A stretch of DNA of 64,000 bases, from the NCBI GenBank assembly GCA_963805065.1, contig CAWDSS010000010.1, forward strand, positions 536,359 through 600,358, read 5' to 3'. The DNA comes from Candidatus Omnitrophota bacterium (GTDB taxonomy: Bacteria > Omnitrophota > Gorgyraeia > Gygaellales > Profunditerraquicolaceae). A program made the translations under genes and the position numbers. The stretch's first letter is position 1. Each line of letters opens with the position of its first letter. Below, piece after piece: positions 6,401 through 43,750 of this stretch. A model generated the notes under the pieces. That model saw nothing but the letters and a program-made list of their open reading frames with translations, had not been told where the DNA came from and searched no databases.

Positions 6401-9400
6401 CTCTGAATCTTCCCTTAACGCCTGTCACTGCCATAAGTTCTTCAATGAACGTATCATAATCCTCTTCGCTTAAGGCGCGGGTAGATAACTTATCCTTATT
6501 GCGCTGGGCAATCCTTAAAATTTCGTAAATAGACATCTCCTTAGTAACAGACAGGGGCTTAACAGTGCGGGTGACATTCTTGTCAAAATTATCCACCATT
6601 TGCTTGACCTGCTTTGCCGTTTCGGTTGCTGATATTTTTTGCGGCTGCTTTAATTGATCGAGAATTTTTTTCTTTTGATCTTTGCTATAATTTTTCTCAA
6701 CGTTCAGCTTAGACAACAGCGCTTTAGGATTAAAGGCTTTAAGATTCTTTATTGCTTCCTCACAAAGTATGCTGTAGTAAAATGCTTTGTAGCGGTCGGC
6801 AATAGGCCTGGTTGAATCATCAAACAATTTGACAAAACCTTTCTCGCCTTGCTCAAGCCCTTCTATTTCATCCTTGATTTTTGCATCCTGATAATAATCT
6901 TTTAAAGCAGCTATAACCAGATCGAGTTGTTTTTTGTGATCAAGCAATGTTATGCCCAACACAAATCCTGCATTCAGGCTCTGTGAACTTCCTGTTTCTC
7001 TACTAATGCTATGGTTAAGCCCTACATTAAAGAAAATAGAAGATAAGATTCCCCGGTCTTCTTTCTCTAGTGCAAACCTCCCGGGGATATTTTTAAGAGA
7101 TTCTGAAAGCTTGTTTCTGTAATTATCGAAGTCTTTTTGGATAACTGCCTTGACTTCATTATCCATAATATCAAGGCTTACATACTGGTTAAATTGCTTA
7201 AAGTAAGCCTCTTGTGCATCAACATATTCATTATAGGCTTGCAAATATTCCAGCGTTACCCTTTCTTTTTCTTTGCTGTTTAAATTCTCAATAGCGGCAA
7301 ACACGCGTATTCTGAGCGCTTCTGTGGCATTAAGTGCCTTATCCATTTCATTCATAAAAGCATTGCCTAACTCTGCCAGTTCTTCCATACTGATATCCTG
7401 GTTGCCCGTGAGAAGGTTAATAAGCTTGTTCCGGAACTCTGAAATTACACCTCCGAAATTAATGCCCAGGTTTGTATTCTTTAATAAATCGCGGCTTGAT
7501 TCTCCCTGAACCCCTCCACTAATATTTAATTGATTTGTGGTAGCCTCGTTGTGGGGTTTACCTATAACCTTTTCTCCATCGAAGGAAACATTGATTTCTG
7601 CGGGCTGCATCTTTTTATATTCCGGGCTGCCCGGCTTGAATCGGGGGATAGCTTGTCTTTGTTTATAAATAAAATCGAGGGCAATCATCAAAAGCTGATA
7701 CACGTCAGATTCTACAAGCACGCCCATGAAAATGTTGGCATCCAGCCAAGCCTTTAAGGTATTATAATCATGATACGCCTTAACAGGCGGCTGCATGTTG
7801 ATGCCTAAATTCTTAAGGGCTGCTGTAACTGCGTCTTGAGAAATAGCAATAATCTGGTCGCCGATTTCCTGCGGATTAACCTCTGAAGAGTTATTGTCGC
7901 TCACCCCTGCTAAGCCTGAACGGGAATCCAGCTTTCTTTCTTCTTTTTCCAGATTTCCCTTTTCCTGATAAAGCACCCAGAGTTTCCGGAAAGCACCTTG
8001 ATAAGAAGGCGTCATTCCCTTCAGGACCTTAATAAGGTCGCTGGCGCCCTTTAATGTCAATCCTTCTGCTCCAGTAATAACGCCTATTAGTGTCTTAAGC
8101 TTTGCCTCGATTCTTTCGTCCCGCAAAGGCGCCCTCTCTGCCCTTAACACCTGCAATACCTTTCTCAGTAGTTCTATTTTCTTATAATTGAGGCCACTCT
8201 TATCGGGATTGCTTTGTGCTTCAGCCAGGAGTTTTTCTATTTCAGCTACAGTATTGCGCTCCATTTCCAGGAGATTGATTTCTTTCTTGATTGCCTCCTC
8301 ATCCTGGCGGATTTTCTCTAATTTCTCATTGTCAGCCTTGCTGAAGGATTTAATTATAATCTTGTTGTCTTTGCCTATTTTAATTTCTCCTGCCTTAACC
8401 GCATGGTTGTAGAAATTGAATTCTTCTCTTAACTTTCCGGCAAGTTTCTTATGCTGCAGAATAAGGTTATTTAACACTCCTTGCATTTCTTGGCTTCTGG
8501 CTTCGCAAGCATCTTTTTCCAGCTGCCTCTGCTCTTCTTCTCTCCAAACTTCTTTTAAATACTCCTGGGTATTGTTGCCTTTGGCTGCCATAGCATCATA
8601 GTAGTCCCTATAGAAGTCTTGAGCGTTGTGCGGCAGGTATTCTCTGGGAATACCGTTACAATTTAACAAAGACAGGCGCGCTGCGTATAAAGAGCCGCCT
8701 TGTATAGTTTGGGCTTCATTGTAAGCCTGATAAATATTACGAATTGTCACCAATGGCTTGATTTCTGCCAAAGCACGCTGTAAAATTTTATTCTTTGCCT
8801 CCGGTACATAACCACTGAACAAATTATTTAAAATCCCTTCGATAGCCAGTAATTCTTCCAAGGAGCCGTTTACTACATGAACATTGATAATATTCGATAT
8901 TCTGTTGTTAATGGCCTTAATTGCATCTGCATAATCGCCGTTCTCTGTCGCTTTGCCTTCTTTGCTTCTAGTGTCTTTCAGTTGGTCCGTTATTATCTCT
9001 TTGAGAATGTTTTTCAATACGGATTTTTCTTCTTCCGTAATAATATTCAATTCGTATTTTTTCTTAAGCGCTTCGAGCAGCGATTTCATGGCATTATCAA
9101 AATCAGCATTCAGGAGAAATTCAACTGCCCTATCTGTATCCTCAGAAATTTTCTTAAGAGAATCGATTTTCCCATTGAGAGATTCTAATTCCTTCTTGTT
9201 CTTTTCAATATCAACTCCCTTTATCTCTGCCTCTAATTTCTCCCGGTCAATGGCTATGCCTAAAACCTTCATGGCCTCGGGGCTCAGTTTCAATTCATCA
9301 AGAGTTTTTGCGTAAGACAACTGATGTTGTTTCTTTTCATAATCCTTGACCTTAAGATCGAGTTCTGCCTGTTGTATCAACAAATCTTTATTCTCCACAG

Positions 9401-12400
9401 CTGTATTCTTGGTTAGCTTGTCCTTTTCTTTGGGCAAATCATTTACTTGCTGTTGTAAAATCATAACCTTGGCTAAATCATAGAGTGCGCTCAGATATTG
9501 CGGCTGCCTGGCAGAGTCAGCGATGGCTGCGTTAATCAATAGCCTAACGCGTTCTTTAGTGCTGTTATCAGCTGAAGTTAATAAACCGCAGAGGGTATTC
9601 TTGTCTTCTTTGGAAGCATCAGCCTGTTGCGGATTAGTCATTCCTGATTGTAACTCAAACGCTGCCTCCTTTACGATTTCTGCCATCTCACTTGCGCTAT
9701 CTCCCTTGGCTTGCAATTCTTTGTATCTTTTCTGTAAATTCTCCAATTTTTGTTTCTTGCTCTGGAAATCTTCGCCTTTTGACGCCTGAACACTTCCCAG
9801 GCTCATCTTCAGTTCATTCAATATCTGAATCTCTTTTTGATCCTCATTTGTATCTAAGCCAGGGACTCTCATCTCTATCAAGGCCGCTACCCTGTGCAAT
9901 CCTGCATTTTTGTATTCCTCAAGCGACTTCAGGCGTTCCTGGGCTTTCTTAGTAGCTTTCCGGACTTTCTCAACTTCTTCCTGGACATAAAACTTCTTAC
10001 CTTGCTCAATCTCATCTTTCTTGGCTTCAGCGATTTTTTGTTTTGCTGCTTCAATTTTTAAATTCATTAAAATATCTTCTATTTCCAGGATGCGTTTTGC
10101 ATTCTTCCGGAAACGAGTTTCCTTATCTTTGCTTTGCTGCTCTTTCTTAAGGATGCTCTGATAACTAGTCACTAACGATTGCTTTTGTTCCAGGAGCGAG
10201 AGCGTCCGCTCTGTATCATCTTCTGCCTTCAGGAACTTAATAGCAGAGTTAAAATAGGAGATTAGCGCAGCAGCTTTTTTGCTATTCCCCTCCATATCAA
10301 AATCTTTCTTATAGGTGACGGACAACCAGATACGGTTCTTTTCTACATCCACAACTCCCACAGGATACTCTGCCTGCAGGTAGCGATTCATAAACTCTTT
10401 GGCTTTGGGTTCGGTGATATCATTAGGCGAGGCTTTATTCTTGTTCAACAGATCCAAAATGTTCTTAAATGTATTAAGCTCATCAATCAGTTCTTTATAA
10501 AACTCTGTTTTTTCTCTGTTGGCTTTCTCATGATTCCACCAGAATAACTCTTTTATCCAATGCCTTGGCTCTTTTTCCCCAAAAGCTTTTCCCTCATCAG
10601 AGGTATTAGCAGCAATAAGCAATGCCTTTTCTGCCTTGAACTTATCAAGAGCGGCGGATATCTCGGCTTTCTTTTCCTGCAGCGGGTTATTTTCCTCCGG
10701 CTCTTTTATCTGCTGCTTAATCTCATTAGACGGATACTTTTCTTTAAACTCTGCAAATTTAACCCGCTCTAACGCCTCCTCTTGTTCTTTAATTTCACTG
10801 TCTTTTCTCTGAATATCTTGAGCCTTTGCTACGAGCATCTCAATAAACTTAGAGAATTCAGGCGTATTCCAATACCCAGCCAGTTTTTCCAGATTCTCCT
10901 TATTTACATCCGGTTTATTAATTCCTATATATCTTAATATCGTCTCCAGTGCTTCTTTAGAAGATTTGTTTTTCAGGGCTTCTCTGAAAGACTGTTGTTT
11001 GAATTCAGCAGAGTTAAGCATCTTCAGTGCCTCTTGCGGCTTTATGGGTTCTTTCTCTTGCGGGACGTTCTTTAAAGAAATTTTCTGGACCATGTCTTTC
11101 AGCTCATTCAAAGTCAAATTCTTATGCCTTTCTGAAGCCTCCTTAATAAGCTGCGCTCTGATTCCGTTAAGAGCCTCTTGCCAATTAATCCTGCCTTGAC
11201 GATCCCTGACTAAAGAAAGCCTAACTTTTTGTTTATTAATTCCATTCTGCTTGTTAATATCTTCTATGTATTTTACAATTGCCTCCTGGTCAGGCTTTCC
11301 AATAACCCCCGCTTTTCCTTTTTCAAATAACTCATCTACCAGTTTTTTGCTAAAATAGCGGCTGGTGAGCTGCGATTTCATCTCTTCTTTATTTAATAAT
11401 TCAATGATGAGATTCTTGCTGGCTTCAGGAATGTTTTTCCAGTCCAGCTGGTCGTTCTTAAGCACATTATCCAATACCTTATCATCAAGGCCCTTAAGCA
11501 TTGCCCTGTTATCCTCAACATAAATTCTCGTCTGATTATATTGCATCCAGGCATCCAAATTCATTCCTTTAAGCAGGACAATATTAGGTAAAATCTTTCC
11601 CTCTTTGGTTTCTCTCAATTCCTTGACATTTGCCCCGAATTTAGGCAGCTGGTTCTTTAGTAAATCTATTGCCTTCTTAACTTTATCTGCCATTGTGCCT
11701 TTTTGGCTAATCACCAGCTCTATGGCAACGGGTGCTCCGGGAGATAACTTCTTGTTATTAAGCCGCTTTACAAAATCATCTGTGAGGTGGGGGAATTCTT
11801 TTGCGTTTTCAGAGACGAAAATAACCTTTTCCGCAGTATGGATAAGAAATCCTGTCTCATCCTTCTCAGAAGATACTATACCAACCACAGCAACCAGTGC
11901 CTGCATGTCTTTGGCTATCTTCATAAGCTTATCCGGACTTGCGGTATCGACAATAAACATCATCTTGCCCAAATCTCCGCTTAATGCCTGTACCATCTGA
12001 ACCCCTAAGTCCTCTTTCATCTTCTCCCAGGCTTCTTGCTTTTCTTTAGTCGGATTTATCTTTAGCCGTTTTAATTCTTCAATTGTGGCAAGTGGTAGAT
12101 TTGCCCTGCCTTTATTAATGGTATCCAAAATCCCCTGAATTTGTTTTGTGTAAGGATGCCTTAGGCCATCCATCATATCTGCGAATTCGGTAGATGTCGG
12201 GAAACGATTGTTATGCTCTGCTCTCCATTTATTCAATTCAGGCTTGACTTGTTGTCTAAGCTCCGGAGCTATGTCTTCTTCTCTGTTGTCCTTAATAGAT
12301 ATCCAGAGTGATATGTTTGAGGCCTTATCAGTACATACCGTATCCCACTCCTTAATATTCAGCTTGCCATGTAACGCCTCATGTGTGAACTGAGCAAAAT

Positions 12401-15400
12401 CAATACCAGTAGCACCATTCACAGTGTCCAACATAGACTGGCCCCATGCAATAGCACCATATTTACCTTCAAGGTTCTGTGCGAATTGATCCAGCGTTTT
12501 ACCTCCAAAGTCTGCAAATATGGACCGGTCAGGATCACCCAACACATGGGCACTCTTAATAATACCTCCAATTTCAGCTGAAACAATCCACATATACCAA
12601 TAGCTCTGGGCAAACTCTTTGCCTCCGTGTAGCCATACATAAGTATAAGGTTTATTCTTTTTAATATCATCCAACTTTACCCTTGAGAATATACGCCACA
12701 CTGGATAAACAATCGCAGAAACAGGCGCTGTTAATGTATAAAATACCGCTCTTACTGCAGGCAACACAAGATATTTTCCAACGGCGAAATTCCTCTCTTT
12801 ATCAACAAATGCCTTAAATGCATCTTTGAAAGATTTACTTGTTGCGGCATTACCTGCGTAATATGCTCTAATAATCATATTTACCAACCCTGGGTCGCGA
12901 ATCGAACGCACCAACCCAAGAGTAATAGCTTCGCCGATTTGTGTTTTAACTTGCTCTAACTTACGCAATTCATCTGCACTCAATCCTTCTTTATTCTGTT
13001 CTGCTTCATTTATGGCAATAATCATATTCCACAAATACCTTGGATCCAAAGATACCGGAAGATTTCCTGGGACCTTCCTAATCTTAATATCTCTTAAGAT
13101 AGTCATTAATCCTAGTATTCTCTGTAACCTAAGGCCGACCACAATAACTACCAGCCTTGCAAGCTCCTGTAATGTATGAGGTAAACCGTATTCCGCGCAT
13201 ATTTTTACCAGAAATGCTGGCAAGGGAGACCAGGTTGCGATATTTTGTGCTGCTTCAACCGGTATTAATCCAAACACTGTAAACACCAGGGGCAAAAATG
13301 CATGAGCTATAACATATCCCCAAAAAGTCATCTGTCCTCTAACCAGGGCAAATGTGAATAAACCCATAAAAACAGGGAAGGCTTCATTCAGCCTTAAATA
13401 AGCGCTCTGGATGTTATAGCTTCTCTTGCCAAACCAACCAGCTGCTTCATATTTTTTATCATAATGTTTAACCAGAGCTATAAACTTTTCATCTTTTCTC
13501 AACTCTTCAAACTTATCTTTGCTATTATCAACGTTGTTCTGCATATCAGAGGTAAAGAAGTTATTGGTTACTTTGGCCAGAAATGGGAATAAGAAACCAA
13601 CGATCACGCCCGTAGCCACATCATGACACATCAGGCCAAAGGTAGCTCCGATTGCACCACCGATAATAATGTTTGCGATAGCATATTTATTAAAGATGTT
13701 TTCTTTCCCGTATATCTTAACGGAAAAAAGCGGGAGAAGTAATCCAACTATTGCTCCCAAGGCTATATTGGTCCAAGTGAGGCCAAATGCAGCTCCCAGC
13801 ACTATACCTATCGGTATATTCACTAATAGAGTGTATTTATTAAGCAGGGCCTTCTTAAAAGATAGCTCAACAACATCCTGCGTCTCTTGTGCCTTTTTCT
13901 CATTCCGCATGTCTCTTCTGGCAAAAAACTCACTTCTTCGAGCATGCCAGGTGTTACTGATCTTGCCGAAGATAAATGTCGGTTTTTCACCTTTTAAGAG
14001 CGCTTTGATATTATTTGTTGCATAAAGCATTGTTATGATTGTGGCGCCGCCCGCAACTAACATATTAAACAATCGTGGAAAATAAGGATGAGCATTAATA
14101 AATGCTTCTGATAATAATTCTTGGGCAAGATTGGGGAGGTAATTTGTGCTAACATAGAGCATACCGACTATTATAGGAAGGATGCTTCCATTGCGGAGAA
14201 ATTCGAATTGTTTCTTGGCGTAATTTCCCGTTAAATATTTTGCATATTCATCCGGTCCGCGTATCCCGCCATTATGGATATCCAAGGCTTGCTTGAAGAA
14301 TTTATAAGAGGCATAGAGAAAAGCTGAAGACAACGCTATAGCAGGTATCGGCATAGCCAGGATGAATCCAACCGCAGTTAAAACTGTAGCCACAGCAAGA
14401 TTAGCCACGCCCAATATAGCCGAGCCCCTTGTTGCCATACGTCCATCTTCGTGGGAAATCGGCGAGCTGGAGTGCGAGGTAAGTGGTGAATTGGAAGATT
14501 CATTTGGCTTGCTAGCTTGTTCAGAATTTTGCCCAGCAACTTTCGCAGGATGCGACTTCAATAATCCGTTATATCTAACTTCTAACGCTTCTGTGCTTTG
14601 TTCTGCCAGGATGGCTTCAACCATTATACGTTTACCATCGCTATCTAAAGCCGAGAGGTCAAAATATGTTGATTCTACAAAGCCTATATTCCTGATAGCA
14701 AAGTAAGTCTTCCTTAATTCATTTTTTACTTCGCGTATAACATCCTCATCCCTTCCTAACTTGTGGGCAACGCCCAATACTACATCAAGATTCACTAATC
14801 CCACAATAAATAACTTTCCGCACAGGTATACCAGATCCGCAAGCATATGAAAAACAGTAGAAACATAGAAGTGAAAAGTTAACATGCTGTTATTGAAATT
14901 GCGAAGTGCTTGTATTTTTCTTGAGGATTTTTCAATTTCCCTGAAGATTGACATATGCGGTTGCGGCTGTCTTAAATCTCTCTTAAATTTCACGGGTGAA
15001 CTGGAGCGTTGGGTAAGCTTCGAAATAATTGAACTGGAAACAGTTTTGTTGCTGGACTTAATTTTATAAGAAACGGCATATTTTTCTGGTTTAAAATTCT
15101 CAGGCATTAGCGCTAAGCTTGCAGATCCAATAACTATATAAAAGATATTGAAAGGTTCGAAAGATTGCAAGGAAATTAATATAATCGCACCGCTAATTCC
15201 ACGGATAACAAAACTTGTTATACCGTGGATAAAGTCATCTGCTTTATGACGGAATGCGTCTTTGGTATCGTAACCAATGTAAAGTAAAACAGTGCCTAAA
15301 CCGCCGAATATTACCGTTACAATTAGATCTAAGTCAATATTCATATTAAATGCGGTCAGGCCAAATAATTTTTGTTCTAATCTTAATAATGTCGGTGTCA

Positions 15401-18400
15401 TGCCAGCTATTAAAAGTAAATTTGAATACACATATTTGTAACCCGGAAAATAATTTAATGATGCATACTTAAACAATGTATTGCGTAATTTCTCCGCGAG
15501 CACAAAAATCAACCCGCCAACAATTATTGGATTTGAAATTTCTCCCATCGGATGCGAAATGAAAGAGATTACGGTAAGTAAAATACCGGTCAATGTGTTC
15601 TTTGTATTAACACCTTCCACCGGTGAGCTGCCTTTTATCAAAGAAACAATCTCTCCATTCTTCTGGACAGGGAATTTCGTAAGTAGCGACTTAAGTGCCG
15701 CAACGTCAAAATGCCTAAAGAGCATAACATCATGCTTAAAGCTTTCATATTCTTTCAAATCTAAAATGTTGCGAGCATTGCGAAGAGTTGATGCTAAGAA
15801 TTTATTCATTGCCAGGACAATGTTTTCGTTGGATAGATCTGCCAGGGCTATATTTAATAGCTTTGTAAATTTCTCTTCAAGTGCGACTCCCACCTGTTGC
15901 TGTTTCCTACCAACAGAAATATACTCTGACGAACCGACGTAAACGTGTATACGATCCTTGATAACAGACAAAATAAGCTGCGCTCGCTTCGCCGCATGGC
16001 TGCTATTTAAGAATCTCGAATTCGGTAAACTCTGCAAAGCAAAACTCCCATTCAAATCTGATAAGAGCCCTTGAGCGATTTCATTGTAATGGCTCTCAGG
16101 CAAAGCTGCTATTTTTCTTGAATAACCTGCGGGACGTATTCCTGAGGCGGGCAACTTAGTAAATCGTGAAACATATCCCATGACATCATAAGCTAAGGCA
16201 TGAATGAGTTGCTTTATTTGAGAAATAGAGGCGGCTTCGAGAATAAGGGGGCTATAAATTTGGTTCAGGATTTCATATCTGTCATACAAGAACTCTCTGT
16301 CAGCGAAACCTTTAAGATTTGCTTTTAGGGTTTCACGAAATTCGCCTATTAAATTCAGCGCCTTCTCCTTAACATCTGATTGCTCCAACATACCGCCACG
16401 CAGAAACTTAACTATAGGCGAAGAACCCTTGTTGTAAAAAGACGCTCTGGAAGCCAGGAATAATGAATATACCTCACTATCCTTTCCCCATACCTTTAAA
16501 ACCTGCTCATCAGCAAAATTCCTTACTTCTTCGTTAGTCAGGCGGCCATAGTTCTGGTTAATTCTCATAATGAGTTTCTGCGGTTTGCTCTTGTGATTAT
16601 CAATGTAGTCCTTTAATGTTTTAAGTAAGAACGTTAACACATCCGAGTTAACCATGTCTTCTAAATCTTTACTAAATGGATGATCCGGAGTCATAGCCTT
16701 AAGGACAACCTCATTCCCCAGCACTCCTGCCCGATTTAATCCTAATTCATGATAGAGAATTAATGTGCTGATATATTCTATATGCTCTTCGCTGAACCAG
16801 CCAACAAATGTCCTAAGGAACTCCTCAGCTATCTTAGCATTCATCATGGCGTGGAGAACCAGCTTGCGGAATTCTTCATCCAGCTGAGGATTGGAAAGCT
16901 TTGCCGGTTCAAGCCAATTGAATTTACGGCCATGGTCGTGGTTAAGAAACGCAATCTCCTTGTAAATGTCTCCCGGAGTAGCTAATCCGTATTTCCGCAA
17001 GAGGTAGTAAGAATCCAGAGTTTGCTCGTGATGATAGCGGTCAGATTTTTGTAAATAAGAACCTATGGGATGAAGCGCTGCGCCATAGCTAAAATCTAGC
17101 ACCTGCTTAACAGCCTCAAATTTCTTACCATCATTCGGCCCATCTCCTACACTCCTCCTTGCTTCCAAGGCTCTTTTAGTTACGCCAAACGGAAGCACAA
17201 CACGAGCCTCTTGAACTTTCTTGTATAATGCCCAAGCTTCATCCAGGGACATAGGGCTTGAACCGATTCTTTGGATATGCTTTCTTGAAGGCCTAATTTC
17301 AAAGATTGCGGCTTCTTGTTTTATTTGGCGTCTGCTGTCAAATATAAACTCTACATTGGTTGCTCTAATATGCTTAAATAGATGCACGGGTAACAAAATC
17401 CTGCCACCTTCTCCAACATCTAAAACCTCGGAAAGACTAAGAGCAATGTATCTTAAGCGGTTATCACTGAGTATTTCTTTAATTGCATTTGTATTGGGAT
17501 TGAGAACCAGATATGGCGCTCTTCCCGGAATAGTAAGCGACCTCGAAACAAGAACCTTTGTTCCAATAAGTTCTTCAAAGTCTTCGGGTAATATTAATTC
17601 TCTATCCCATTTGGCAAGACCGTAACTAAAAATGACTTGGGTTTTTGAAAAGTCAGGCTGTCCAAAGATTGATTTAAATACTTCTATTGGCTGGTAGCCT
17701 TTTAATAATAAAGAATCAATGTTTGCACCTAACCGCGGTAACTTATTTGCGTTGGCTCTCCAAATCTCCTTCCTTGAAAACGCCGGAGAACCAGCTAAGT
17801 TTTCTAATTTTTGCAGTAAATTAATAATTCGGGGTTGATTGGTTGCTTGCATCGGCGAGCTGCCATGAGCGGTAGAAATAATTTCATCTATTCTAATCAA
17901 AACCTTCTCGATTCCAGAAGCAACATCAACGACCGTGAAGCTCATCTTCGCTATAGCGCCGTATATGTTGCGTAACTCTATTCCCTTGCTTGTTCTCATT
18001 AATAAAGCATCTTTGACGTTCACCTTAATTTGCCTGAATATGCATTCAATAGGTTCATCTTGTATATGACGCCTTATTAATTCATGATTTAGATATTCAA
18101 CTATGGACAAAATGTCGTTCAAAGATTGCTCAAAAGGTTCGATAGATTCTTCGGAAACAGCAGTCCCTTGCATACCCCTGACACTACTTTTGAGCTCCTT
18201 AATTATTTGAGTAATTTCTACAGATCCCTGAAGAACTGCTGCTTTTAAGTCTCTAAACGCTTGTTCATAATAACCCACCGGCGAAGAGGAAGTGCGGATG
18301 ACATGGCCGTCTTTTGAGAATAGAATCGGTTTTTGGGTGAAAGGTTTTTCGTAGTAATATCTCAAAAATCTCTCGACTTCAATCCTTGTTTCCCTCCACG

Positions 18401-21400
18401 GACGTCTGCCTTTTTTATTGGGCGTTTCAGACAACTGTTTCAGCCAATCCTCTGGGCCATACGTCTGTAGTGCTTTGTATGGAGGCGTGCGTCCGGAATT
18501 GTACATAGCCACAGCTGCACGTACGTAACGGTAACCATAGAAGAATCTATTAAAGGAAAGAATGCTTATTTGTTCAAAATGGTAGCCTTCCTGGTTTTTA
18601 TTCTCGACAAGGCGGTGCTCACGCGTAAACTTAAGATCGCAATAGAATATCGCTGTGCCAATAGCTATATTATAGTCTGGGCTATCGTAAACCTTTTGGC
18701 GGTTAATCTTTTTAACTTTTTCCGGAGCAATTCCTTCGGCAGCTCCGATAATCTTTCTCAAAACTGGAGCATATTCGTCATTATTGTGTATCGATGCATC
18801 AATCATATCCATGCCCTGTGGAGTTATTTGCATAATGCCAATGGCGCCGGCCCAAGAAATAATGACTCTACGTTTGCCATTTTTACCAAAAATCCAGTGA
18901 TTTATATCTGTCTCTGCTCCAGCGATAGATCTTGTGATACGTGGATTGAAGTGGGCGATAAGAGCATATTTTGCAAACGAATCAAACTCAATGACTAGTT
19001 TTTCAACTTCCTTCTTGATGAGGTTCTCTACAATTTTCCTCACAGGCTCGGTTTTTCTTTGAGGGGTAAACTGAAGAGGTTCAGATGTCGGTTTATCTTC
19101 CTTTATTATTGGTGCAGTTTCAATTTTTGACAACTGGGAGGATTTCCAAGTAATTGGCTTTTCTCTTGTGGGCCGCGGCAATTTGTGTCGAATATCCTGA
19201 TTAATCTTTTTGTCTGACTGCGGCTTACTCTTCTTAACTGGCAACACTGGTTGAGTTTCAACTGGCTTCTGAGGCTTCATTATTTCTGGTAAGCGTTTAT
19301 TATTGACCTCAACAGTAACTGATTCTTTTACTCCTTCTTTCTCTGTTACAAATACTAGAGGCTTATTATGAGCAATAATACCTTTATATTCGAATTGAAG
19401 CGCAAAAACTCTAATCTGTTCTTCAGGATATGTTTGGTCACTGGTCACATATACTTTTTCTATTTTGCCTTTTTCATCTTCAACCTCAACCACATGGCTA
19501 GGGATTCCTATCTCTTCTAGTTTATCAACAATTTTAAAGCCGACTTGTCTATCATATTTAAAGCCGACTTGTCTATCATAAACCTTAATGTTAAATTTAC
19601 CTTCTGGCGAAGTTTGATATGCTGTGTTAAAAGATGGAAGTAGATGCTCCAAATTAATACTAGACGCGTTAATATCAGTAAGAAACACGTTGCCTGCAAA
19701 GACAACAGCTACAATTGTACTAATAGATTTTACCAGCACGCCCTTAAACGTCATTGGTGAAGAAGTACTATCTAATAGCTTTTCTATTTTACCTATATTT
19801 GTATTATTGCTAATTTCTGCTGTATTCTTTACAAAAGCTGCTTTGTCAATCTTCGTATTTATAACTGAAGATGCGGCTGGGCTGGAAGAGACATCTTCTT
19901 TTCTCATATAAGCTCGTAACGCCCAAATGAATCCAAAAGCCGCGACAACACCTAGGGCAATCTTTCCTGCCCCAATTTTGCTAGATTCTTCTACTAATAC
20001 GCCATTCTTGAATTCTAATACTTCGATGTTTTGCAATGTGGCGTCATATGCCCGCGCCTTGGATTCATTATCAACATCCACATACAGCTTAGGATTGCTG
20101 AAAGAGATATCCTTAACACTATGGAATTTACCTTTGAGTGCCGATATCAACTCAAATCTGGATAACCTGTTATTAGTAGAAATTGTATTTACAACTAACT
20201 TCTCAGGCTTAAGGCCATACTTTCTTAATATAGTAATTAAATTATCGACTTTTTGCTCTATCTCTCGAGAGCTATTCCAAGTTTGATCATCATTAAAAGG
20301 AGAGAAGTGACCCACTATTACTTTATTGCTGGAAGTACCATCTATCACAAACACTACACATTTATTGGTCTGAATGGCATTTGTGGTAATATAACTACCT
20401 CTATCAGCGACTGCTAATGTATTCTCAGCAACCGTGGTATATTCATGTTTTGCTTTTACAGAAATAGCCGGATTTAATAAATCGTATACTGTGATAGAAG
20501 CAAACGCCTGCAAGGCTGGGGTAAGCCATATTACCAAGCTTACCGCAGCTATAGCGATAACTTTGGAAAAAGAGGCTCCTCTGGCCTCCTTATGATAAGA
20601 GGAGCCTATTAATCCTGTAGGTAGGGACTTTGCCATAAGCTGATTCAGCGCGTTGCCGGACAATGTCGGCACAGCCACATTCCAATTCAAGCCAAGCCTC
20701 GCCGCTCTGCTGCTTAATAACCCCGTTGATAAGGAAATTAGCTGTCCTGCCGCTACCGTTGACCTTTGCGGAACCAAATACCGTGCCATCACTGTTGTCA
20801 ATAACAAAGTGGATAAACTCCAAATCACTATACTGTTTACACATGGTACACCTCCTATTGATGTTGTCATGAGGGCGGTGATGGGGGTCAGTTCCCGGAG
20901 GTATGATGGGACCATCACCAGCGCCTCATGAGCAACAATAGCCGTAATTGCTACTATTCCTGCCACGGAAGGAGTAGCTAACGGCCGGATTAAATTCAAT
21001 ATATTTTCTGTTAAATGTTGGGTTGCTGTATGTATAGTTGTTGTAATAGGGGTCGCAGGATGGGTCAGTCTCTGGAGGAGAGATCCTGCGAAACCCCTAT
21101 ATACAACAATAGCCGCTACTATGTTCCTGCCACGGAAGGGATAGCTAACGGCTGGATTTCTAATGTTTATTATTAATTTCTTGATTAAGGAAGTACTTAA
21201 GGAAGGTGTTTTATAGACAAAAAGACCACTAGGAGTTTCTTTAGTGGGCGGACTAAGTCCGTTTAAGGTTTTGACAGGATTTCTACCGCTTAACTCAGAT
21301 CTTTCCACAACTTTGCCGGATAATACTGGCGAAGCTGCTAATTGCAGTTTCTCTGTCTCAACCGCACTATTAGAATCTATAATAGTTCTGTTACCAGAAC

Positions 21401-24400
21401 TCTTACTTTGTTCCTTACCTGTATTTACAGGTGAGGTTCTTTCAGCTGGAATGCTTTTAGCTGGAGTTTCGCCTCTGGCATTTTGCTTAATTATGTGGAG
21501 CTTACCTATATTGTAGGGCTCTACATTAATTAGCTTCCAGTTGCTCAGAGCACTGACCCCTATGAATCTAACCTTAGAGGTTGCACTCCAAGAACCTGCC
21601 CTAGCTGCATCTTTTATAGATGCACTTCTAGAACCTGGCGTAGCTCTATAAGCTGAGCTTACACCTTCTGCACTAAATTGTGCAGCTTTGTAACCTTTTG
21701 AACCAATATTTGTACTCGCTATTCTTTCAGATCCACGACCTGCGATCGCGAGAATCGCAGCCGCGGGTCTTATGGGGCCGGCGCGCTGGCGCAACATCCA
21801 AGCAAGAGAGTTAAGATCAGTCAAGGCTCCGCTTAGAGTTGCAAGGGAATTCTTTTGCAGATAAGTTTGTAAGCTAGGGAATTGTGAGACAATCACAATC
21901 AATGCCAATCCTCCCGCAATCCAAGGATTAGCTGTATTACCTATATATAGTAGGGCGAATGGCACAGCCATAGGCATTCCCAACGGCTGCTGCTTAGGCC
22001 CTCTATTCTGCAAAGGAGAGCCATTTGCCTGATCATCAAATGGCGCTTTGAGTTTCGGCATATTCCCTAGATAATCACTCCTGCCTATAATACTCAAAGG
22101 CGCTATAGGCTTGAGTTGCTTAACTACTAATGCCTTAAATTTGATTACGGATGATGCAAGTTTTGTTGCTTTCATAAACGTAAGTGGCAACAATGGACTC
22201 TTTGCTATCTTAGCCGTATTGGCCATTAACATGTCTTTGTTATTATAAAACACGGTCGTAATAAGCGACCCTTGCCTAAATGGAGTTGAACTTGCTGTTA
22301 TTAAAACAACTGCCATCTTAGCGCCTTGCGGAGCAATAATCCTGATTTCTTCTGCCTTGGTTAATGCTGCATTAAGTGTTAAACGCGCTACTAAATCAGG
22401 CGATCTGACTATTATTAAAGTAGGTAGAGTTGCCTTTCCGACGTCAGGAGCAAGTTGTTTTGCTTGTGCTGCTGTAAGGCGTATATTTTCCGCAACCTCA
22501 GGCCCAAGCTTCGTAGGCTTACCTATTATTGCTAGGCGAAATGCCGTATCAGACAAAGGCTGACCAGATCCCTCTACAGCCGCCATTATCGTCCCACCAG
22601 TATCAATCATCAGGTTTAATACCCCTATAGGGCTAGCACAGAGGCTATACTGCTCCAGTAACGACTGTAGCGCCTCGCCTACTGTTGGTATCTCTTCTAT
22701 CGGCGTGCTTCCGACGCGTAAACTTACCCCCGGCCTTACCGGCAACGCTTCAAAAACAGGCGAAGACGTTATTTTAACATCCACGCCTACTTCTGATGTT
22801 TTTTCAATTAGCTTAAACACGACCGCACCGTTAGGCTTAATATCTTTTACTTCAATTTTTGCTCCTTGCTGTTCAGCCAAATCTATTACATGTGTTGTGA
22901 ATGCTCTAATTTTAGCTTCCTGTTTAATGTTGTTAATGAAATCGTGTTTTACATAAATCAACCCCTGAGGTTTCAATACGCGGATAACTTCCTTCATTAC
23001 ATCTTGTTCTTTAGCCCACCTAAAAAGATCAATAACACTAACTTTTGTGACGCTATTATCGGCGAGAGGAATTTTTCTTGCATCAGCCCTCAGCACCGAA
23101 ACATTGGCGGGGATTGCTTCAGCTTGCTTATAAGATTTACTTAAGTTATTCAACTCCTTAGAAATATCAACCATCGGCTTCATGGCGAGCTTATCCGTTA
23201 AATCTGGTATCGTAGGATTATTTACAAACTTTAATAAAGGTACAACTAAATTATTGATATTCTTTTCTGATATATCAAGGTATATGGATTTGATGCCTTT
23301 CAATGATGCAACCGCTATATATGTTCCAGGGCCACCGGCTAAGTCAAGGAACGTATCTTTGTCATTTAGATCAAGCGCCTCCATTACTGCAATTGCAGGA
23401 ACTGTACGCTGTAACCTAAGTTGTGTCATGGGTGATGCAGAAATATTGATATCTTCTATATCCCCAAGATAATCTTTGCGTGGCGACGCAGACTGCGCCA
23501 ATGGCGTGGGTTTTATTGCTGTCTTCGCCATCGGCGAACTTGCAGCATTGGTTTCAATGCCGCTTTGTTTAACCAAATTCTGCAATGTAGCAACCGGAGC
23601 AATGTGCATAATTTCATCAATGCCGGTTTGCTTGTAAATAGCTTCAAATTTCTGGCCTAATTCAGGAGTAGAAAGTATCTTATCTGCCGCTTTAACCATC
23701 TTTTCATCTACTGCATAATAACTCTTGGCAACTCTATAAGCAGCAAAGAACGGAGTCATATGCCCAAAGAGTTCTATGGCTACTCCGAAATCAGTCTTCT
23801 CAATCTTGGAAGCTGACTTTACTAAATTATCCCATTCCACCTTAACCGGCGTGCTATCTTTGATTGCCACGCCGATATCTGCTATTGCCCCTGCTGCCAG
23901 TGTTGTGAATTTCTCCACTGCTATACTGGTACTATCGAAATCAGGGCTTTCTTTAATACGCCCTACCAGTGCTTCTAATGCCCTTGCCTTTATTATGGGA
24001 GCCTTATCGCTATCTCTAATTGCCCTAACATATTTGGCAATACTATCGTAATCAGTTCTTAAATAATCTACTAATACTTTTACAGACTCAACATCTTGTA
24101 ATTCTTTCACAAACTGCTCTAATGCTACTTTGTTATCTTTATACGCATATCTTAATCTGGCCTCGGCAGGATCATGTGTAAAGGCTATAAGGTTTTCTGC
24201 TGTAGGAATCAGTTTATCTTCTCTGATTAAGGTAGCGCCTACGCCATTACCATATTCTACTGAGTTAGCTAACATACTTGTCCTTGCGCCTTCAATAATG
24301 CCCAGGGTATTTAGTAATGTAGTTTCGAAATCATCTTTAGAAACTATCCTTGCTATCTGTTTATCTATAGTTGCCTGCTTTATTTCTTCAAATAGCACTT

Positions 24401-27400
24401 TCTCATTATCATTAAGCCTGGCTCCTATATTGCCAACGCTCGTGGGCAACCCGGATTCAAAATTATATTTCTGCTTGTTTTTATCCTTAGCATAGAAAGA
24501 TGCCATGTAGCTATTGGGATAGAATTTTGCCAAGGAAGGAGTTGATAGTTCACTTCCGAAAGAATAGGACCCGCCGTTCTTTACCAAATTATATTTCGTC
24601 CTATGGCTTAAGGCAGCATAATCGGGATTCTTGTATCTTAAGGCATTTAAGACATATCTTCTGCTAATACCCTGCAGGAACATCTTGGACATTTTTTTTA
24701 GTTCTTGGCTATTTTTATTAGAATAATAAAGTTCTGAATATTGCCTCATAAAGTCTTTAAAGGAACCTTTTTCCTTCATGGATTCAGGCTTAAAGAAATA
24801 TTTTACCCTTTCGCTAAAGGTTAGAGGCGTAGTGCCGGTGATATCTCTTACGTATTGCATCTGATCAGGGATTAAAATCTCCCCTGACTTGAGCTTCTTA
24901 TTCGCCCACTCTACTGTATCAATAGCTGTATAGGTGAGGGCGAACCATTCTGTAGGATTGTAACCCCAGAGGCTATCACGGCTCTCGCCTAAAGGAATGC
25001 CTGCTAATAAACCGAAAAGGTGACCTAATACTTCATGGCGGCTTTCAACGTTGCCTACTGATCTAATCTTAAAGCCGTATCTTCCATCTTGACCCAAGAC
25101 TGTTTCGAATCTATTCAAAGGAAGCCATACTTCAAACTTCTGCCCCATTTCATCGCTCTTGTCGAAAAGTTTTACTGTAGTGATATTTGGAGGCGCAGCC
25201 TTTAATACAACCTTACCTTCCAAGAATAGCATTTTTAATTCATCCATAATGGCTTCCGCACTCTTACCATTCATTAACGGCTTAACTTCTTCTGTTGCAG
25301 CCATAGTTTGCATTAATTTTTCCTGGATTTGCTTACGCTGTCCGGGATCACGAATACTGATATAGATTTCCCGTTGTAATTGATTGCAACCAGACTGCAA
25401 AGAATCAATCTTGGAAAGATCGACTTTTTCCGGTAATAATCCATTAGCTTTTAAGGCAACCGCCGTAGAAATACTTTCTATAAGCCTATCAGTGCCGATG
25501 TTCTGGCTATTTGATAAGCCCAATTTTTCCTGCAGGCCTTTAAAATCAGTATTATATTCTGAAACTAAATATTTTGAAACATCCTGTATCTTATCTGTTT
25601 TAAGTACATCAATCTTAGTGCTGAGATAATCCTTATTACTCTTGCTCTGGAGCACCTCTTGTAATACCGCTAATTTTTCCAATCTGTTTAATAAGTTTTC
25701 TACATTGCTACTCTTTTCATTTATCTTTTCAAGGTCTTCGAGATTTGCCCACTTCACAAACAGATCCTTTACATCAGCTACCTTCTCATCAATCAATGCA
25801 TCGGCAATGTTATATAGATATTTACCGCTAGATACTACCTCGATGTTCGCTTTAGCCTTATATCTTGTTTCTAATAGTTTACTATAATTTTTGAAGAGGT
25901 TATTCAGACTGGCCTTATATATTAATGTATCTTGGGCATCTAATTTAGAGGAATTCATTTTATCTACCAATGAATTTATATAATCGTCTACGAATGCTTC
26001 CTGCATTTGAGGCATAGCTAAACTTATCTCCCGTGCCAGTCTCTTTTTAGCTAAAAAATGATAGGCCCAATCCTCTGTGCTTATAGAAAATGTGGATTCG
26101 ATCTTGGCGAATTTCTTATCAAAAGATAGCTTCTTATCAACCAAAGTTGAATAAATAGTAAAGTTGATGTCTTTCTTTAATTCCTCAGAGGAAATTTCTT
26201 GGTTCTCCAATCCCGTTCCCTGCTTATATTGATCGAATTTTGTTTTAATTGAGGCAAATGCACTATCTTCTTCCCCTATTTCACGGGCCTTTTCTATGCT
26301 CGTCTTAAATTTAGTCTGATAGTATTGGATGGTCTTGTTAAATAACGGCTGGTCGAAATTATTTTCTCCCAAATTATCTTTTATTTCGTCAGCCAATTTA
26401 GTTTGGATATCTGGAATATTGATTATGTTTTGAATCTTATCTGTGTAGCTGATGGCTTGATCTTCTTGTAATTGTTTTAAGGCTAATTTCTGGTAAGCAC
26501 TGTTGTAGGCTGAGGTTAAATATTTAACTTTTTGAGCAGGAAATTCTTTTTCAGATAAAACAGAGGGCAGCGTCTTTACAATTACTTCCCTTAATTGCTC
26601 TTCTCTTTGCTGCTCTTTCTCTAAATCACTATAATCTTCTACCAAGCCTTGATATTTTAAAATCTTAGTAAATGATCTTAACTCTTCTTCATTAATTACT
26701 TTGTCTGTACCCGCTATAGCCTGCGCCAAAGAAATTTTATTGCCGTTAATTTCGATTTCTTTAAACATGAGGTTGTCTACAGCGTATAGCAAATCATCTT
26801 TATCAACTTTTGCTTTTGGTGCAGCAGGCTCTGTGGTTTTCTTGGCATCTTCTTTTAATAGGCCTTGCTTAAGCATAAACTTCTTGGCATCTTGCAATAG
26901 GCCTTGCTTCTCAACTGGAGTGTTTACATTTATTAAATCCTCCAGTTTAAGCCTCTGCCACAAAAGCTCAACCGCGGGATAAAGCCCAATGCTCTTTCTG
27001 ATCCTGCCTAATAAATCCTCCTGCTGGTAATTGATAATATCTTGTAAGGAAACCTTACTTCCCAGATTCTTGAATAATTCATCAGTAGCTTTTATCTTTT
27101 CTAGAGTGGATAACCCGTCATTATCGCTGTAAGAGACCTTGTATAATTTATCGAATGTTGTGCTGAATATTCTGTTCTTTTCTTCGAGTTTTTGGTAGAA
27201 CTTACCTGATAGTGAAAATGGACGGATAAAAGAAGCTATTCCTGCAATAGTCGGATATTCTCTTGTTGAAGCATACTGACCTTTTATGCTGGCATTAACC
27301 ACAGCCAGGCCAAGCAAGTAATTAGATAACTCGGCAGAACCACCTGCGATTTTCATTATATTCTTTTGAATATTGGCAGTCCTATTGATAACGGGCAAAT

Positions 27401-30400
27401 GTAGACGAATTAAGCTTGGGTTAATTGTAGCTGAAATCTTTCTTAAAGAAATTCCTTCATTAAAATTAACTGGATTGACCAACGCATGCTTTAAAATATT
27501 ATCTGCTCCCTTATCTCTATAAAGATGAATAAATCTAGAAACGATGGCCGTAGGGCTTATAGCATCGGCCATGGTGAAATATTTCATTAATAAGGTATCA
27601 TTGGTTTGCGCAGCAAAAGGAATATTGTTTACTAGCTGCGTATTTGCCCTCTCAAGCAATAACTTTTGGTCTCTAAATTTAGAAAGCCGCCCATAGGTAA
27701 CAGACGGGTTGATACTTAAGGATACAATCTGTTTTATATCTTGCTGGTCAACAGGAGCTAAGTTATTAATACCGGGTAAGGAGGTATCAATATACTGAAT
27801 TAAATTAGCTGCAGAAACCTGCACATTGAAATTAGTTGAGATATTCTGCCATAAAGCATTATTATGCTGTAAAGACTGCAGAGAATTATATAGAGTATTG
27901 GCAAAGGCATTGTTATTAATTTGAGGCCCGACAATACCTGCTACGATTTTAACGAGATTGGCGCTAGTTAAGGTATGCGTGCTAAAACCATCTATTGTCT
28001 TACGTATTGCATCTTTATCAGCCTCTGACACTGCGATTTGTTTGCCTTCTAATGTCCTGATTAATTGCTCTGCGCCTTCCCTTACCTGCATACTCTGTTT
28101 CATTAGGTCCTCTGAAGAATTGGAAGATGTTCTAATTGTAGGAAGTAAGAAATCTTCGGCTAACCTCTTTGCAGAAGGAAGGATATCCTTGACTGTCTGG
28201 ATATCTCTTATACCTATAATTTTTCCAGAGGATGCGCCAAACATCTGTTCTTCGAAGTTTTTATCTTTGGTGAGGTCCCATTCAGCGCTCCTGAATGCTA
28301 ATTCTATCTGTCCACGCTTAGCATAATCCTCTCGGAATGGAGACTCTTCTGCTAATAACCTAAGCTTGGAAGAAGTAGGCTCATAAGTGCGGTCCTTTGT
28401 CTCAAATGCCCTAGAATTGCCTTCCAAGACATTTACTAATGTCTTTACCTGTTTACCCAGGCCTTCCAATCTTTGTTTTACTATATCTTTAGGACGTGCA
28501 ATATCTTCGAAGGCAATGGTAGTATAGAGTTCTGAATTTCTGTCCAGAATAACCTCTTGATAAACCTTTTGGATAAAGTTGCGCTGCTTAGCATTCCAAG
28601 ATTTACCCATAAACTCTTCAAATGTACGTGTCAAGAATACCTCTTGCATGCTTCTTGTAAATATATCCAATGCTGCTTGGCTTCTATCTCTATATTCCTG
28701 TATATGAAAAGCTAGCTTAATGGCTTCTGGGTCAGAAAGATTCTTGTTATCTAGCGCATCAATATAGTTCTCAAGCTCAACACGCTCTCTTGATCCATAA
28801 GCAAGTTTACCTGCCTCTTTTTGCCAGCGTTCTTTTAAATATTCCTTTACTGGGGCTATATCCTTGAAATAAGCATCTGCTTGTCCGCGAGAGTAATAAA
28901 AATCTACTTTTGCGCCACGATCACTGTTACGGTTGATACGTGCTATTGCCTGCAAAGCTCTGGACATGTTGGTGATAGAAGGATTTTCCGCATAGAACAA
29001 ATTCACATCCTTGGCAACGTTAACTCCCTCTTCGCCGATTTCTGTGGTAATAATGATTTTACCTTTGCCGCTTAGCTGCTTTGCCTCACGGACTAGGTCT
29101 CCTTTATCAAAAGAGTCTGAACTGCCGTCAAATGACCGCAGATGTTCTCCACTTAACGAATCTAAATCTATGCCGCGATCTAATAATTCGTTCCTTAAAT
29201 AACCTTTGAACTCTCCCAGATTTTCTGCTCCCACAATTACATAAGCGGATTTACCTGATTTGCCTCTTTCCTTGCCAGCAATATTAGTTGCAATATTTTC
29301 GGCAACTGTCTTAGCCATTTCTTTCAGCGGCTCTGCTTTATCGTTGAGCTTTATCTCGCTGACGATTTCATTACCTACCATATAGAATAATTCATTATTT
29401 CTTATAACTAATCTTGCTTTTTCTCCGGCCAGGCTAAATTCCTTGCCATTCATAAAGGAAATGATCTCTGAAGGTGTTCCGGTTAATGCTGAGTTTCTTC
29501 CGCCAATCTTAGTAAAAAGCTGTAATACAGAAGAGGAAATAATTGTATCTCCTCCAGCAAAAGACTCGTTCCATTTAATCTTGTCTACAGGGATATTCTT
29601 TTCCTCTGCTTGTTTTAAGGCACTGGCTACCATCAAGGCTTTATTGTGTAAAACCATATCTGCCTGTAAACCATCCATCTTGCTAGACACCTGCACTCTG
29701 CCATCGGTAATAGCAACAGAAATTCCCTTCTTAATGATTGCGGATGCAATACTGGTAATATCTGCATCGGTAATGGTTTTGTCATGATTTAACTGAGTTT
29801 TAAGATAATCTAAGGCTGATTGGGTAAGAGCAACGCTATCGCCTTCTATAGCATAACCTCTTGTGGTGATGTCTTCTCTGGTCTTGGAAGGCTGTTCGCC
29901 TTGTTTAGTATCAACTTCTGCCAGCTCTAATTTAGTAATTGCCTTGCTATTTATGGCATCCTTTATCTTGTCATAAGCCAACTTGTATTTATTGTAGTAG
30001 TTGGAAAGCTTGGTGTGATCGCGTCCGACAATTGCTTCCAGGCTCTTAATAGCATTCTGTCCTTCATCAAAATCAACCAGGTGGTTGTTTTCTCTTAAAT
30101 ATGTGAATAACTCATCCGCGCTCTTCTTTGCCATATAATCAGAGACCATTCTGCGGTTAAACAGATGCGGGAATTTCTCGTAGCTTGCTACATTAATTGT
30201 ATTGGCATCTTTTAAGCTGGATAAAATCAATGATGTGGGAGTGAGAGGATTAGAAACAGCATTGTCTATGTTTTTGATCTTAAGTCCGAATAATTCTGTC
30301 CAGAAAGTTGCCTGGTCCATCACAGACTTAACCAAGGTTGTATTCTTGGTAAGATATAAAGAAGCTGTGTCTTTACGCGCCATGCTCTCTGATATCAAAG

Positions 30401-43650: not shown

Positions 43651-43750
43651 CGATATTCGGCAACCCGGCTATCTTTTCTTGCTTGACTTGGAATCTCCAA
43701 GACCCGTGGCTTTGCGCCCCCTGATCACTCAGGGTTTACCTTTTCGATCC
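43651..43750 (-). promoter_or_regulatory. GEMM-I (c-di-GMP-I riboswitch)-like aptamer candidate in the giant-gene leader
   Basis: Minus-strand RNA GGAUCGAAAAGGUAAACCCUGAGUGAUCAGGGGGCGCAAAGCCACGGGUCUUGGAGAUUCCAAGUCAAGCAAGAAAAGAUAGCCGGGUUGCCGAAUAUCG. It has GGUAAAC, then a 6-bp hairpin with a GNRA loop (CCCUGA-GUGA-UCAGGG), then GCGCAAAGCC, a second hairpin, and AGCCGGGUUGCCGAAU. From memory, the Vc2/GEMM-I blocks are GGCAAAC ... GACGCAAAGCC ... AGCGGGGUUACCGAUGG. Confidence 0.5.

Follow-up and report, generated by a model that had tools for sequence, protein, structure and literature searches.

A putative small gene nested out of frame, behind RNA hairpin units, in a giant open reading frame of Omnitrophota

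Genes that are embedded out of frame within other genes, with both members functional, are known from phages, such as Rz1 in Rz (the spanins of phage lambda) and E in D and B in A of phiX174, and the products of Rz and Rz1 work together physically. A bacterial case is comS, which lies out of frame within srfAB of the Bacillus subtilis surfactin synthetase operon, on the same strand, and is expressed from the transcript of the large gene (PMC8160284). Here, we describe a nested arrangement in a 64,000-nucleotide stretch of DNA (the window) from a Candidatus Omnitrophota bacterium (GenBank assembly GCA_963805065.1, contig CAWDSS010000010.1, positions 536,359 to 600,358), in which an 84-codon open reading frame (ORF) lies inside a giant ORF of the minus strand. 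The small ORF very probably belongs to a conserved module of three parts in the middle of the giant gene, namely structured RNA units (two in this locus), a strong Shine–Dalgarno (SD) sequence with an ATG, and a gene of 82–93 codons in the −1 frame, as judged from sequence comparison. Any single version of what this module does is put forward only tentatively.

Like comS in srfAB, the small gene lies wholly inside a very long ORF of the same strand and is read in another frame. comS differs in that it has 46 codons, is confined to Bacillus, and has not been described as lying behind a covarying RNA element, whereas the gene nested here belongs to another family, was found at 16 loci, and is accompanied by a demonstrable avoidance of stop codons in the host frame. 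Full embedding out of frame is also shared with Rz1/Rz and the phiX174 genes, but those are phage genes of ordinary size, while the host ORF here exceeds 14,000 codons and its peptide sequence is not conserved over the overlap. Preprints on the giant genes of Omnitrophota contained no mention of nested ORFs, hairpins, or overlapping genes, and a full-text literature search on overlapping genes in Omnitrophota returned nothing relevant. The nested arrangement in a giant gene has apparently not been described before. Nested out-of-frame genes as such are already known; what is new here is the protein family, the translated RNA motif, the location in a giant ORF, and an unusually clear no-stop signature.

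The RNA units also have partial counterparts among described systems. Rickettsia palindromic elements (RPEs) are palindromic repeats that sit in-frame in protein-coding genes, are dispersed over many genes, and are decaying. The units share with them a size of ~100–150 nucleotides (nt), a palindromic build, and translation within a host protein whose frame stays intact; in contrast to RPEs, they occur at one site beside the small ORF, have invariant loops and compensatory stems, and were found nowhere else in the window or the related loci. In the MS2 lysis gene, the puf operon, and the repetitive extragenic palindromic (REP) hairpins of malEFG, stem-loops can set the translation of a cistron or the half-life of its mRNA relative to the rest of a long transcript. 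Stable stem-loops flank a cistron in a long transcript in our case as well, but those hairpins are mostly intercistronic and untranslated, whereas the units described here lie stop-free inside a translated ORF. Finally, a small protein stands beside its cognate RNA hairpin in the lambda N-nut system, with the put RNA of HK022, in type III toxin–antitoxin systems with their RNA repeats, and in CsrA with CsrB-type multi-hairpin RNAs. Repeated hairpins with invariant loops directly upstream of a small-protein gene resemble these arrangements, and the order of five strands followed by a helix recalls the topology of CsrA. The differences are that neither a sequence nor a fold match to these systems was obtained, that the protein is not basic on average, and that toxI-type repeats are much shorter than the units.

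The minus strand reads ...AATAGGAGGTGTACCATG at 20859–20842, with the ATG at 20844, and the small ORF is offset by 2 nt downstream of a giant-frame codon, which corresponds to −1 relative to the giant frame. An earlier note on this DNA, made from the sequence alone, had pointed to a consensus SD and ATG opening an 84-codon ORF in the −1 frame, and the ORF is indeed there (20844..20590). As the note also stated, the start directly follows the second hairpin unit, which stops 2 nt before AGGAGGTG. Over the bases of the small ORF the giant frame reads CVNSIVIWSLSTLLL..., and one of its peptides at the junction would be ...SIGGVPCVNSIVIW.... The likeness drawn in the note to the pilin genes was borne out too, with similarly strong SDs otherwise found on small pilin-like genes of the window. 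The strongest SDs of the window stand on two small pilin-sized genes at 52150–52359 (−) (GAAGGAGGTGATAG-ATG) and 62926–63186 (−) (ATAGGAGGTAAC-ATG). Most of the larger genes have a weak SD or none, which places the SD of the nested ORF in the strong, pilin-like class.

This start signal and the frame behind it stand out within the giant ORF. The heptamer GGAGGTG occurs twice in 43.5 kb, and no other SD and ATG in that length starts an out-of-frame ORF longer than 15 codons. Among the 2,603 alternative-frame stretches in the giant ORF, for which the mean was 10 codons and the 99th percentile 48, none is longer than the 111-codon one (20925..20590) in which the small ORF lies. The next-longest stretches, at 6116–6424 (−) (102 codons) and 12419–12676 (−) (85 codons), are both in the +1 frame; no window preferred the alternative frame there, and they look like chance. 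Coding potential was scored in 240-nt windows across the giant ORF with a 3-periodic third-order Markov model, for which the remaining genes of the window were the sole training set. The giant frame was preferred in 1,434 of 1,442 windows. The remaining eight were contiguous (20957..20508), and every one favored the frame of the small ORF, so that the comparison of the three frames did not come out for the giant frame alone. A finer scan showed giant-frame coding potential dropping over 21180–20640.

Homologues of the small ORF were gathered into a sample of 16 distinct loci including the window, several of them short contigs of 500–1,600 nt. L002–L008 came from tblastn-confirmed scans of genome and metagenome contigs, and L009–L013 and L033–L036 are contigs of distant members with ~30–37% identity. 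The homologue P0001, of 82 amino acids and 67% identity, had been called as a free gene on a 1.1-kb contig. tblastn returned six further distinct loci (seven matches), and organism titles on four of the seven matches named three metagenome-assembled genomes of Omnitrophota and one uncultured Planctomycetales. A HMMER search over 1.84 billion representatives gave 52 proteins at E<=1e-3, 46 of which were 76–98 amino acids long, and the small-protein family comprises ~50 protein clusters. The matches P0048–50 (FG-GAP, YadA, and GEVED repeat proteins of 1,705–2,295 amino acids) were set aside as spurious, reflecting a match to a short DxxDG-like motif. In the protein databases, the family is found mostly on very short contigs or where a contig cuts the giant ORF near the module, a bias that would be expected if gene callers suppressed the small ORF wherever the giant ORF is visible.

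The arrangement was the same across the sample. The small ORF was intact and began with ATG in all 16 loci, at 82–93 codons, where the earlier note had allowed that relatives might lack it or show it interrupted. No stop interrupted the enclosing frame anywhere on the contig in any of the 16 loci, which gave open frames of up to 6,750 codons. The phase of this frame was constant, always beginning 2 nt upstream of the small-ORF ATG. GGAGG or GGGGG stood at −11 in 12 loci and at −14 in two (14 ORF starts tabulated from 13 loci).

The two frames bear very different marks of selection. Counted by codon position of the small frame, substitutions were distributed 5:3:21 between L002 and L003 and 24:21:58 between the window and L002. 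Third positions of the small frame coincide with second positions of the giant frame, and substitutions pile up precisely there, which means that the small frame dictates the sequence and that giant-frame identity is low. Amino-acid identity was 0.48–0.66 in the small frame and 0.24–0.37 in the giant frame, the latter being the same as in the stop-containing third frame. These patterns, together with a signature of purifying selection that persists to ~30% identity, indicate that purifying selection acts on the small ORF and that it is a real gene.

The giant frame over the same bases is nevertheless kept open. With the small protein held fixed and synonymous codons redrawn according to the usage of each locus, the giant frame stayed open with a probability of 0.0004–0.03 per locus, and 2.8–5.9 stops were expected. 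In nine non-redundant small ORFs, we counted xTA codons of Leu, Val, and Ile, which before a codon starting with A or G would make TAA or TAG in the giant frame. They were used 0 times in 104 before A or G and 11 times in 56 before C or T (Fisher p=4.8e-6), and xTG never preceded A. Over the giant frame as a whole, xTA accounts for 36% of such codons. The avoidance is thus specific to context and reflects no general codon bias, which demonstrates selection against giant-frame stops. What seems to be selected in the giant frame over the overlap, on these comparisons, is only its openness, its peptide sequence being an unconstrained by-product. Since the giant frame is free of stops through both the RNA units and the small gene, its ribosomes very probably translate straight through them. 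The nested overlapping gene that the earlier note had listed among three readings is upheld by this conservation, purifying selection, constant phase in 16 of 16 loci, and an actively stop-free giant frame. In L006, a second nested ORF starts at 10433 behind the fifth of five RNA units (9234, 9372, 9624, 9864, and 10290); it encodes a paralogous protein of 92 amino acids (MSIIRIDELEFDHIVDF...) and has its own SD and the same phase. Giant-frame stops are avoided in this second nested ORF too (P=0.0008).

The note had further drawn attention to a Met of the giant frame within the overlap, followed by a segment resembling a signal peptide, and had considered an internal restart or the scar of a fusion between two formerly separate genes. 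Both the Met at 20636 and the segment, with its hydrophobic core and AFA site, are present in the window; conservation in relatives is where the observation failed. The Met arises from TAT GGC, the Tyr-Gly codons of the conserved AYG motif of the small ORF, and is missing in relatives that use other codons (e.g., TAC GGG in L001). A restart at this position is not supported, in view of its lack of conservation, its origin as a by-product of TAT-GGC, the lack of an SD, and an n-region that would be ~25 residues long. Transmembrane (TM)-like segments occur 95–710 residues downstream of the module in every locus examined, and the hydrophobic segment is most simply a TM segment of the giant protein and not a conserved start. 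Comparison of the internal segment with the N-terminal anchor of the giant protein gave a score of 34, which was reached by 4% of shuffles and exceeded by other windows and was not significant; the idea of a duplicated signal anchor was dropped on this ground. The flanks have no detectable homologues that could reveal a separate-gene state. Across the sampled loci, the nested arrangement appears to be old and actively maintained, unlike a decaying fusion scar.

The RNA units are imperfect palindromes of 117–150 nt (~130) with two domains each and an AU-rich tract before each unit. Domain 1 consists of helix P1, an AGCYGY segment paired with RCGGCU, and a mini-hairpin cap CC-GUGGCA-GG. Domain 2 is a ~22-bp stem with the apex CCC-(N)CCUCC(R)-GGG and a 3' ACUGACC bulge. 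The apical loop exposes an invariant ACCUCC, identical to the anti-SD sequence of 16S rRNA, 54–69 nt upstream of the ATG. Unit 2 of the window has the architecture of unit 1 with different stems in which pairing is kept, and between units and loci the stems differ almost entirely in sequence with pairing retained; folding energies range from −52 to −67 kcal/mol. In a MAFFT alignment of nine units, from whose sequences the structure itself had been derived, 30 of 42 pairs had changed on both sides. In that alignment, 78% of cells paired compared with 38–52% when partners were slid, and none of 500 shuffles matched this. An alignment of 17 real units fitted to a covariance model (CM), which leans towards the model, gave 36 of 42 two-sided pairs and 83% pairing cells. 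G-U pairs outnumbered A-C pairs (46 vs. 21), which points to the sense strand as the functional RNA. The CCGTGGCAGG box is invariant but is not tied to one phase of the giant frame, being read in each of the three (12, 2, and 2 times), and the loop nucleotides show no synonymous variation, so that conservation is at the level of the nucleic acid and not the peptide. Comparison of the units indicates an RNA structure that is maintained by compensatory changes around invariant loops.

The units are also fitted to the frame that runs through them. In 14 non-redundant units, the giant frame contained 0 stops, compared with 51 and 20 in the other frames, and in unit 1 of the window the counts were 0, 3, and 2. 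The covariance model (R1) found exactly two units in the 64-kb window and one to five per related locus, all on the strand of the giant gene and within ~800 nt of the small ORF. In viral contigs, 19 matches to the loop motif were seen, none of which was real by CM. A search of Rfam over 20000–21800 with E up to 10 gave noise only, and at gathering thresholds the whole window gave a c-di-GMP-I-GGC riboswitch and a tRNA, both outside the module.

At the other end of the small ORF, a 3' hairpin carries the stop codon in its loop (Table 1). Equivalent hairpins were found in L001, L005, L010, and L013, and the codon phase of the GGCUCC arm differs between the two protein subfamilies, which argues for conservation at the RNA level. 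As a candidate terminator, this hairpin has a loop of 15 nt and is followed by CUUUUU in the window; it was not called by the terminator scan, and the U-run is missing in relatives.

The structure of the small protein was predicted with AlphaFold2. From the 16-sequence alignment, the model reached a pLDDT (predicted local distance difference test score) of 89.5 and a pTM (predicted template modeling score) of 0.78, with a topology of five strands, a helix, and a short sixth strand; from a two-sequence alignment it was poor (pLDDT 58). M1 is present in 98% of family members, and the near-invariant residues include F10, H12, F23, A26, R27, P74, Y76, and R77. Sequence searches of Pfam, NCBIfam, PHROGs, PADLOC, and the PDB returned no match for the small protein, and Foldseek against the PDB and BFVD returned nothing significant. 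CsrA, Hfq/Sm, cold-shock proteins, the RelE, MazF, and ToxN toxins, Avd, and defense-system proteins were considered as candidates and rejected, as none showed profile or fold similarity.

Taken as a whole, the small protein would be made by independent internal initiation at its own SD and ATG, with either the giant mRNA or a hairpin-bracketed sub-transcript as the template. The 5' units would control expression of the small ORF, displaying the apical anti-SD-like ACCUCC upstream of its ATG, and the 3' stop-codon hairpin would act together with them in bracketing the small cistron. Possible means are the stabilization or protection of a processed small mRNA, gating of the SD, and pausing of giant-frame ribosomes for loading of 30S subunits; thermodynamic prediction singles out none of these three modes of control. 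By analogy with comS/srfAB and Rz1/Rz, the small protein may act with the giant protein or its mRNA or may regulate giant expression, and most likely it works with the giant protein or regulates its expression. The invariant loops and the adjacent small protein also suggest a cognate RNA–protein pair.

Several findings weigh against parts of this interpretation. The small-protein family is without a recognizable family or fold, and its median isoelectric point (pI) is 7.4 and not systematically basic, which weakens an RNA-binding role; the neutral charge likewise disfavors a cognate RNA–protein pair. Not every unit is followed by a small ORF or SD (unit 1 of the window and the second unit of L002–4 are not), so that SD gating cannot be their sole role. 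Predicted SD accessibility from partition-function folding varied from 0.0 to 0.66 across loci, with neither consistent sequestration nor consistent exposure, and invariant loops cannot reveal covariation with the SD. A simple model in which the anti-SD loop masks the SD is thus not supported by thermodynamic prediction alone. Lastly, L007 is 99.8% identical to L006 but differs in domain 1 of its first unit (L007 ~2066, L006 ~9250) by a 7-nt deletion (CTTGTTA), which shifts the giant frame and terminates it at that unit. Such a break may mean that the giant gene is naturally split at the module, or it may stem from an error of assembly.

A bolder possibility, which we regard as rather unlikely, is that the module is a gene-internal expression device of ultra-long genes, with RNA and small protein acting in cis on the giant transcript or on the machinery that transcribes or translates it. 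Candidate modes would be processive antitermination of the N/nut or put kind, mid-gene stabilization or processing of mRNA, and pausing or reloading of ribosomes. If so, the distal half of a gene of >40 kb would be expressed only thanks to the module, which would represent a new class of cis-regulatory RNA–protein element that lives in, and is translated within, the ORF it serves.

Other explanations of the locus were weighed. The module could be a selfish palindromic element with a passenger ORF, similar to RPEs or miniature inverted-repeat transposable elements (MITEs), inserted and tolerated by way of its stop-free frame and having no host function. Units that are imperfect palindromes of 117–150 nt in one to five copies, translated in-frame as part of the host protein, would agree with such an origin, as would giant-gene flanks that are mosaic and mostly non-homologous between loci. 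We consider it improbable, given that every module found was inside a long ORF, with a single site per locus and a constant phase throughout the 16 loci, and that the 64-kb window, the 20-kb loci, and viral contigs gave no further copies. Strong purifying selection on the small ORF to ~30% identity, and stems that change compensatorily around invariant loops with no decay, also speak against a selfish element. Somewhat less probable still is a pair of giant genes with the small gene between them, the second starting at Met 20636 with a Sec signal peptide (the restart or fusion scar discussed above), in which case the open junction would be incidental. The dip in giant-frame coding potential over 21180–20640, the hydrophobic segment and AxA-like site after Met 20636, the TM-like segments 95–710 residues past the module in every locus examined, and the frame-breaking deletion in L007 can all be read in its favor. 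An incidental junction sits poorly with a frame open in 16 of 16 loci, when 2.8–5.9 stops are expected in the small-ORF part alone, and with the avoidance of stop-creating codons in just those contexts where they would create stops; Met 20636 itself is an unconserved by-product of TAT-GGC with no SD, and the anchor similarity is not significant.

A programmed −1 frameshift of giant-frame ribosomes, yielding a truncated giant protein that ends in the small domain, is very hard to sustain. The small frame is indeed −1 relative to the giant frame, and close by are stable hairpins and a strong SD-like sequence, features that are known to stimulate frameshifting in other systems. However, small-frame stops occur only 7–52 codons before the ATG, the interval between the last of these and the ATG lacks an X XXY YYZ slippery site, and the hairpin is upstream and not downstream. 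The ATG and the GGAGG at −11 are, moreover, conserved in nearly all family members, and M1 in 98%. That the 84-codon ORF is a chance open frame without a product has in its favor solely the prior that most alternative-frame ORFs are spurious; this reading is refuted by conservation and the third-position substitution pattern and is also contradicted by the length of the stretch, coding potential, homologues, AlphaFold2 confidence, and frame-wise identity, so we give it practically no credence. A conserved small gene nested in the −1 frame behind its RNA units is the reading that we retain.

Table 1. Coordinates of the module and of other features of the window. MFE, minimum free energy; z-scores of the units are relative to dinucleotide shuffles; SAM, S-adenosylmethionine.
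Feature	Position	Strand	Details
Giant ORF	1..43478	-	ATG at 43478; runs past window start; reads through all module parts
RNA unit 1	21036..21160	-	CM R1 110 bits, E=3e-26; MFE -54.4 kcal/mol, z=-7.6
RNA unit 2	20859..20993	-	CM R1 101 bits, E=9e-24; MFE -59.5 kcal/mol, z=-6.5
SD sequence AGGAGGTG	20849..20856	-	GGAGG begins at -11 from ATG; N4 spacer; giant frame reads G-G-V
Nested gene (putative)	20590..20844	-	84 codons including stop; -1 frame; product MCKQYSDLEFIHFVIDNSDGTVFGSAKVNGSGRTANFLINGVIKQQSGEAWLELECGCADIVRQRAESAYGKVPTYRINRLLLS
3' hairpin (AGGCUCCUCU...AGAGGAGCCU)	20565..20615	-	Small-ORF stop codon in loop, then CUUUUU; MFE -23.1 kcal/mol, z=-3.2
Giant-frame Met and hydrophobic segment (VIAIAAVSLVIWL...AFA)	20499..20636	-	Met 20636, then MAKSLPTGLIGSSYHKEARGASFSKVIAIAAVSLVIWLTPALQAFA
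Class I SAM methyltransferase domain (Methyltransf_11/25) in giant protein	22950-23354	-	~700 residues upstream of module
Tad/Flp locus	upstream of giant ORF	-	RcpC/CpaB, secretin, TadZ-TadA-type ATPase, two TadB/C-type T2SSF proteins, TadE/G-like protein

The ORF scan found the minus-strand frame without stops from 43487 to window position 1, which gives at least 14,495 codons. In the product of more than 14,000 residues, Pfam recognized the methyltransferase domain and a weak Helicase_C match and nothing else, and comparison of one half of the protein with the other showed no similarity. A scan for promoters and terminators revealed no enrichment, and the minus strand yielded no convincing candidate. 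A Tad/Flp pilus locus lies upstream of the giant ORF on the same strand. Giant genes of Omnitrophota have been reported to adjoin type II secretion-like systems, and giant proteins of this kind have many TM-like segments (10.1101/2023.11.21.568195). The giant ORF next to a Tad locus and its related loci, which are mostly Omnitrophota where an organism title is given, fit these published genes (10.1101/2023.11.21.568195). A c-di-GMP-I-GGC (cyclic di-GMP) riboswitch aptamer (RF03167; 63.6 bits, above the gathering score) was found at 43655–43749 (−), ~180 nt upstream of the giant ATG and directly behind the Tad pilus genes; c-di-GMP may thus control the giant gene and, in the case of co-transcription, the nested gene as well. 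Within the Tad cluster, an IS110-family transposase (DEDD_Tnp_IS110 and Transposase_20) occupies 55124–56185 (−). The locus contains two unusual fusions, a secretin with a C-terminal TonB_C domain at 59413–61017 (−) and a T2SSE ATPase with an N-terminal ParA/MinD-like (TadZ-like) domain at 57241–59403 (−), and a tRNA gene lies at its far end (63708–63782, −).

Around the module, the giant genes are poorly conserved. The 500 residues of the giant protein just downstream of the module (19068–20567, −) had 0 homologues at E<=1e-3 among 5.8 billion proteins, unlike the nested 84-amino-acid gene, which had dozens. When the giant protein of the window was compared with those of the other loci by BLASTP, one distant segment matched besides the module. 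With flanks of orphan sequence, the giant genes are thus best conserved at the nested gene and its RNA. The giant genes of L002 and L004 are 85–88% identical except that ~0.9–1.06 kb right after the second RNA unit (L002 10406–11296, L004 10403–11467) has been swapped for unrelated sequence. The giant genes are thus mosaic, and one breakpoint between L002 and L004 is the edge of the module. In L001, a heptanucleotide tandem repeat, (CTCTACG)x4, occupies positions 1–30 in the giant frame at the contig end, directly upstream of the RNA unit. This repeat inside the ORF may be a slippage-prone frameshift site or else the reason for the break in the assembly.

Bacteria offer few clear cases of long, conserved genes that are nested out of frame, and such genes are systematically missed by gene callers. 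The double use of bases seen here is unusually clean, with one frame under ordinary purifying selection and the other under pure 'no-stop' selection in 16 independent loci. The host giant genes are orphan, fast-evolving, and among the largest known in prokaryotes, and the module is their best-conserved piece. A giant ORF, as this case cautions, is not necessarily a gene with a single product. For research on giant genes, the module would offer a handle on their expression, a marker in the form of a hidden Markov model (HMM) and a CM for finding and aligning them, and a small partner protein that can be tested.

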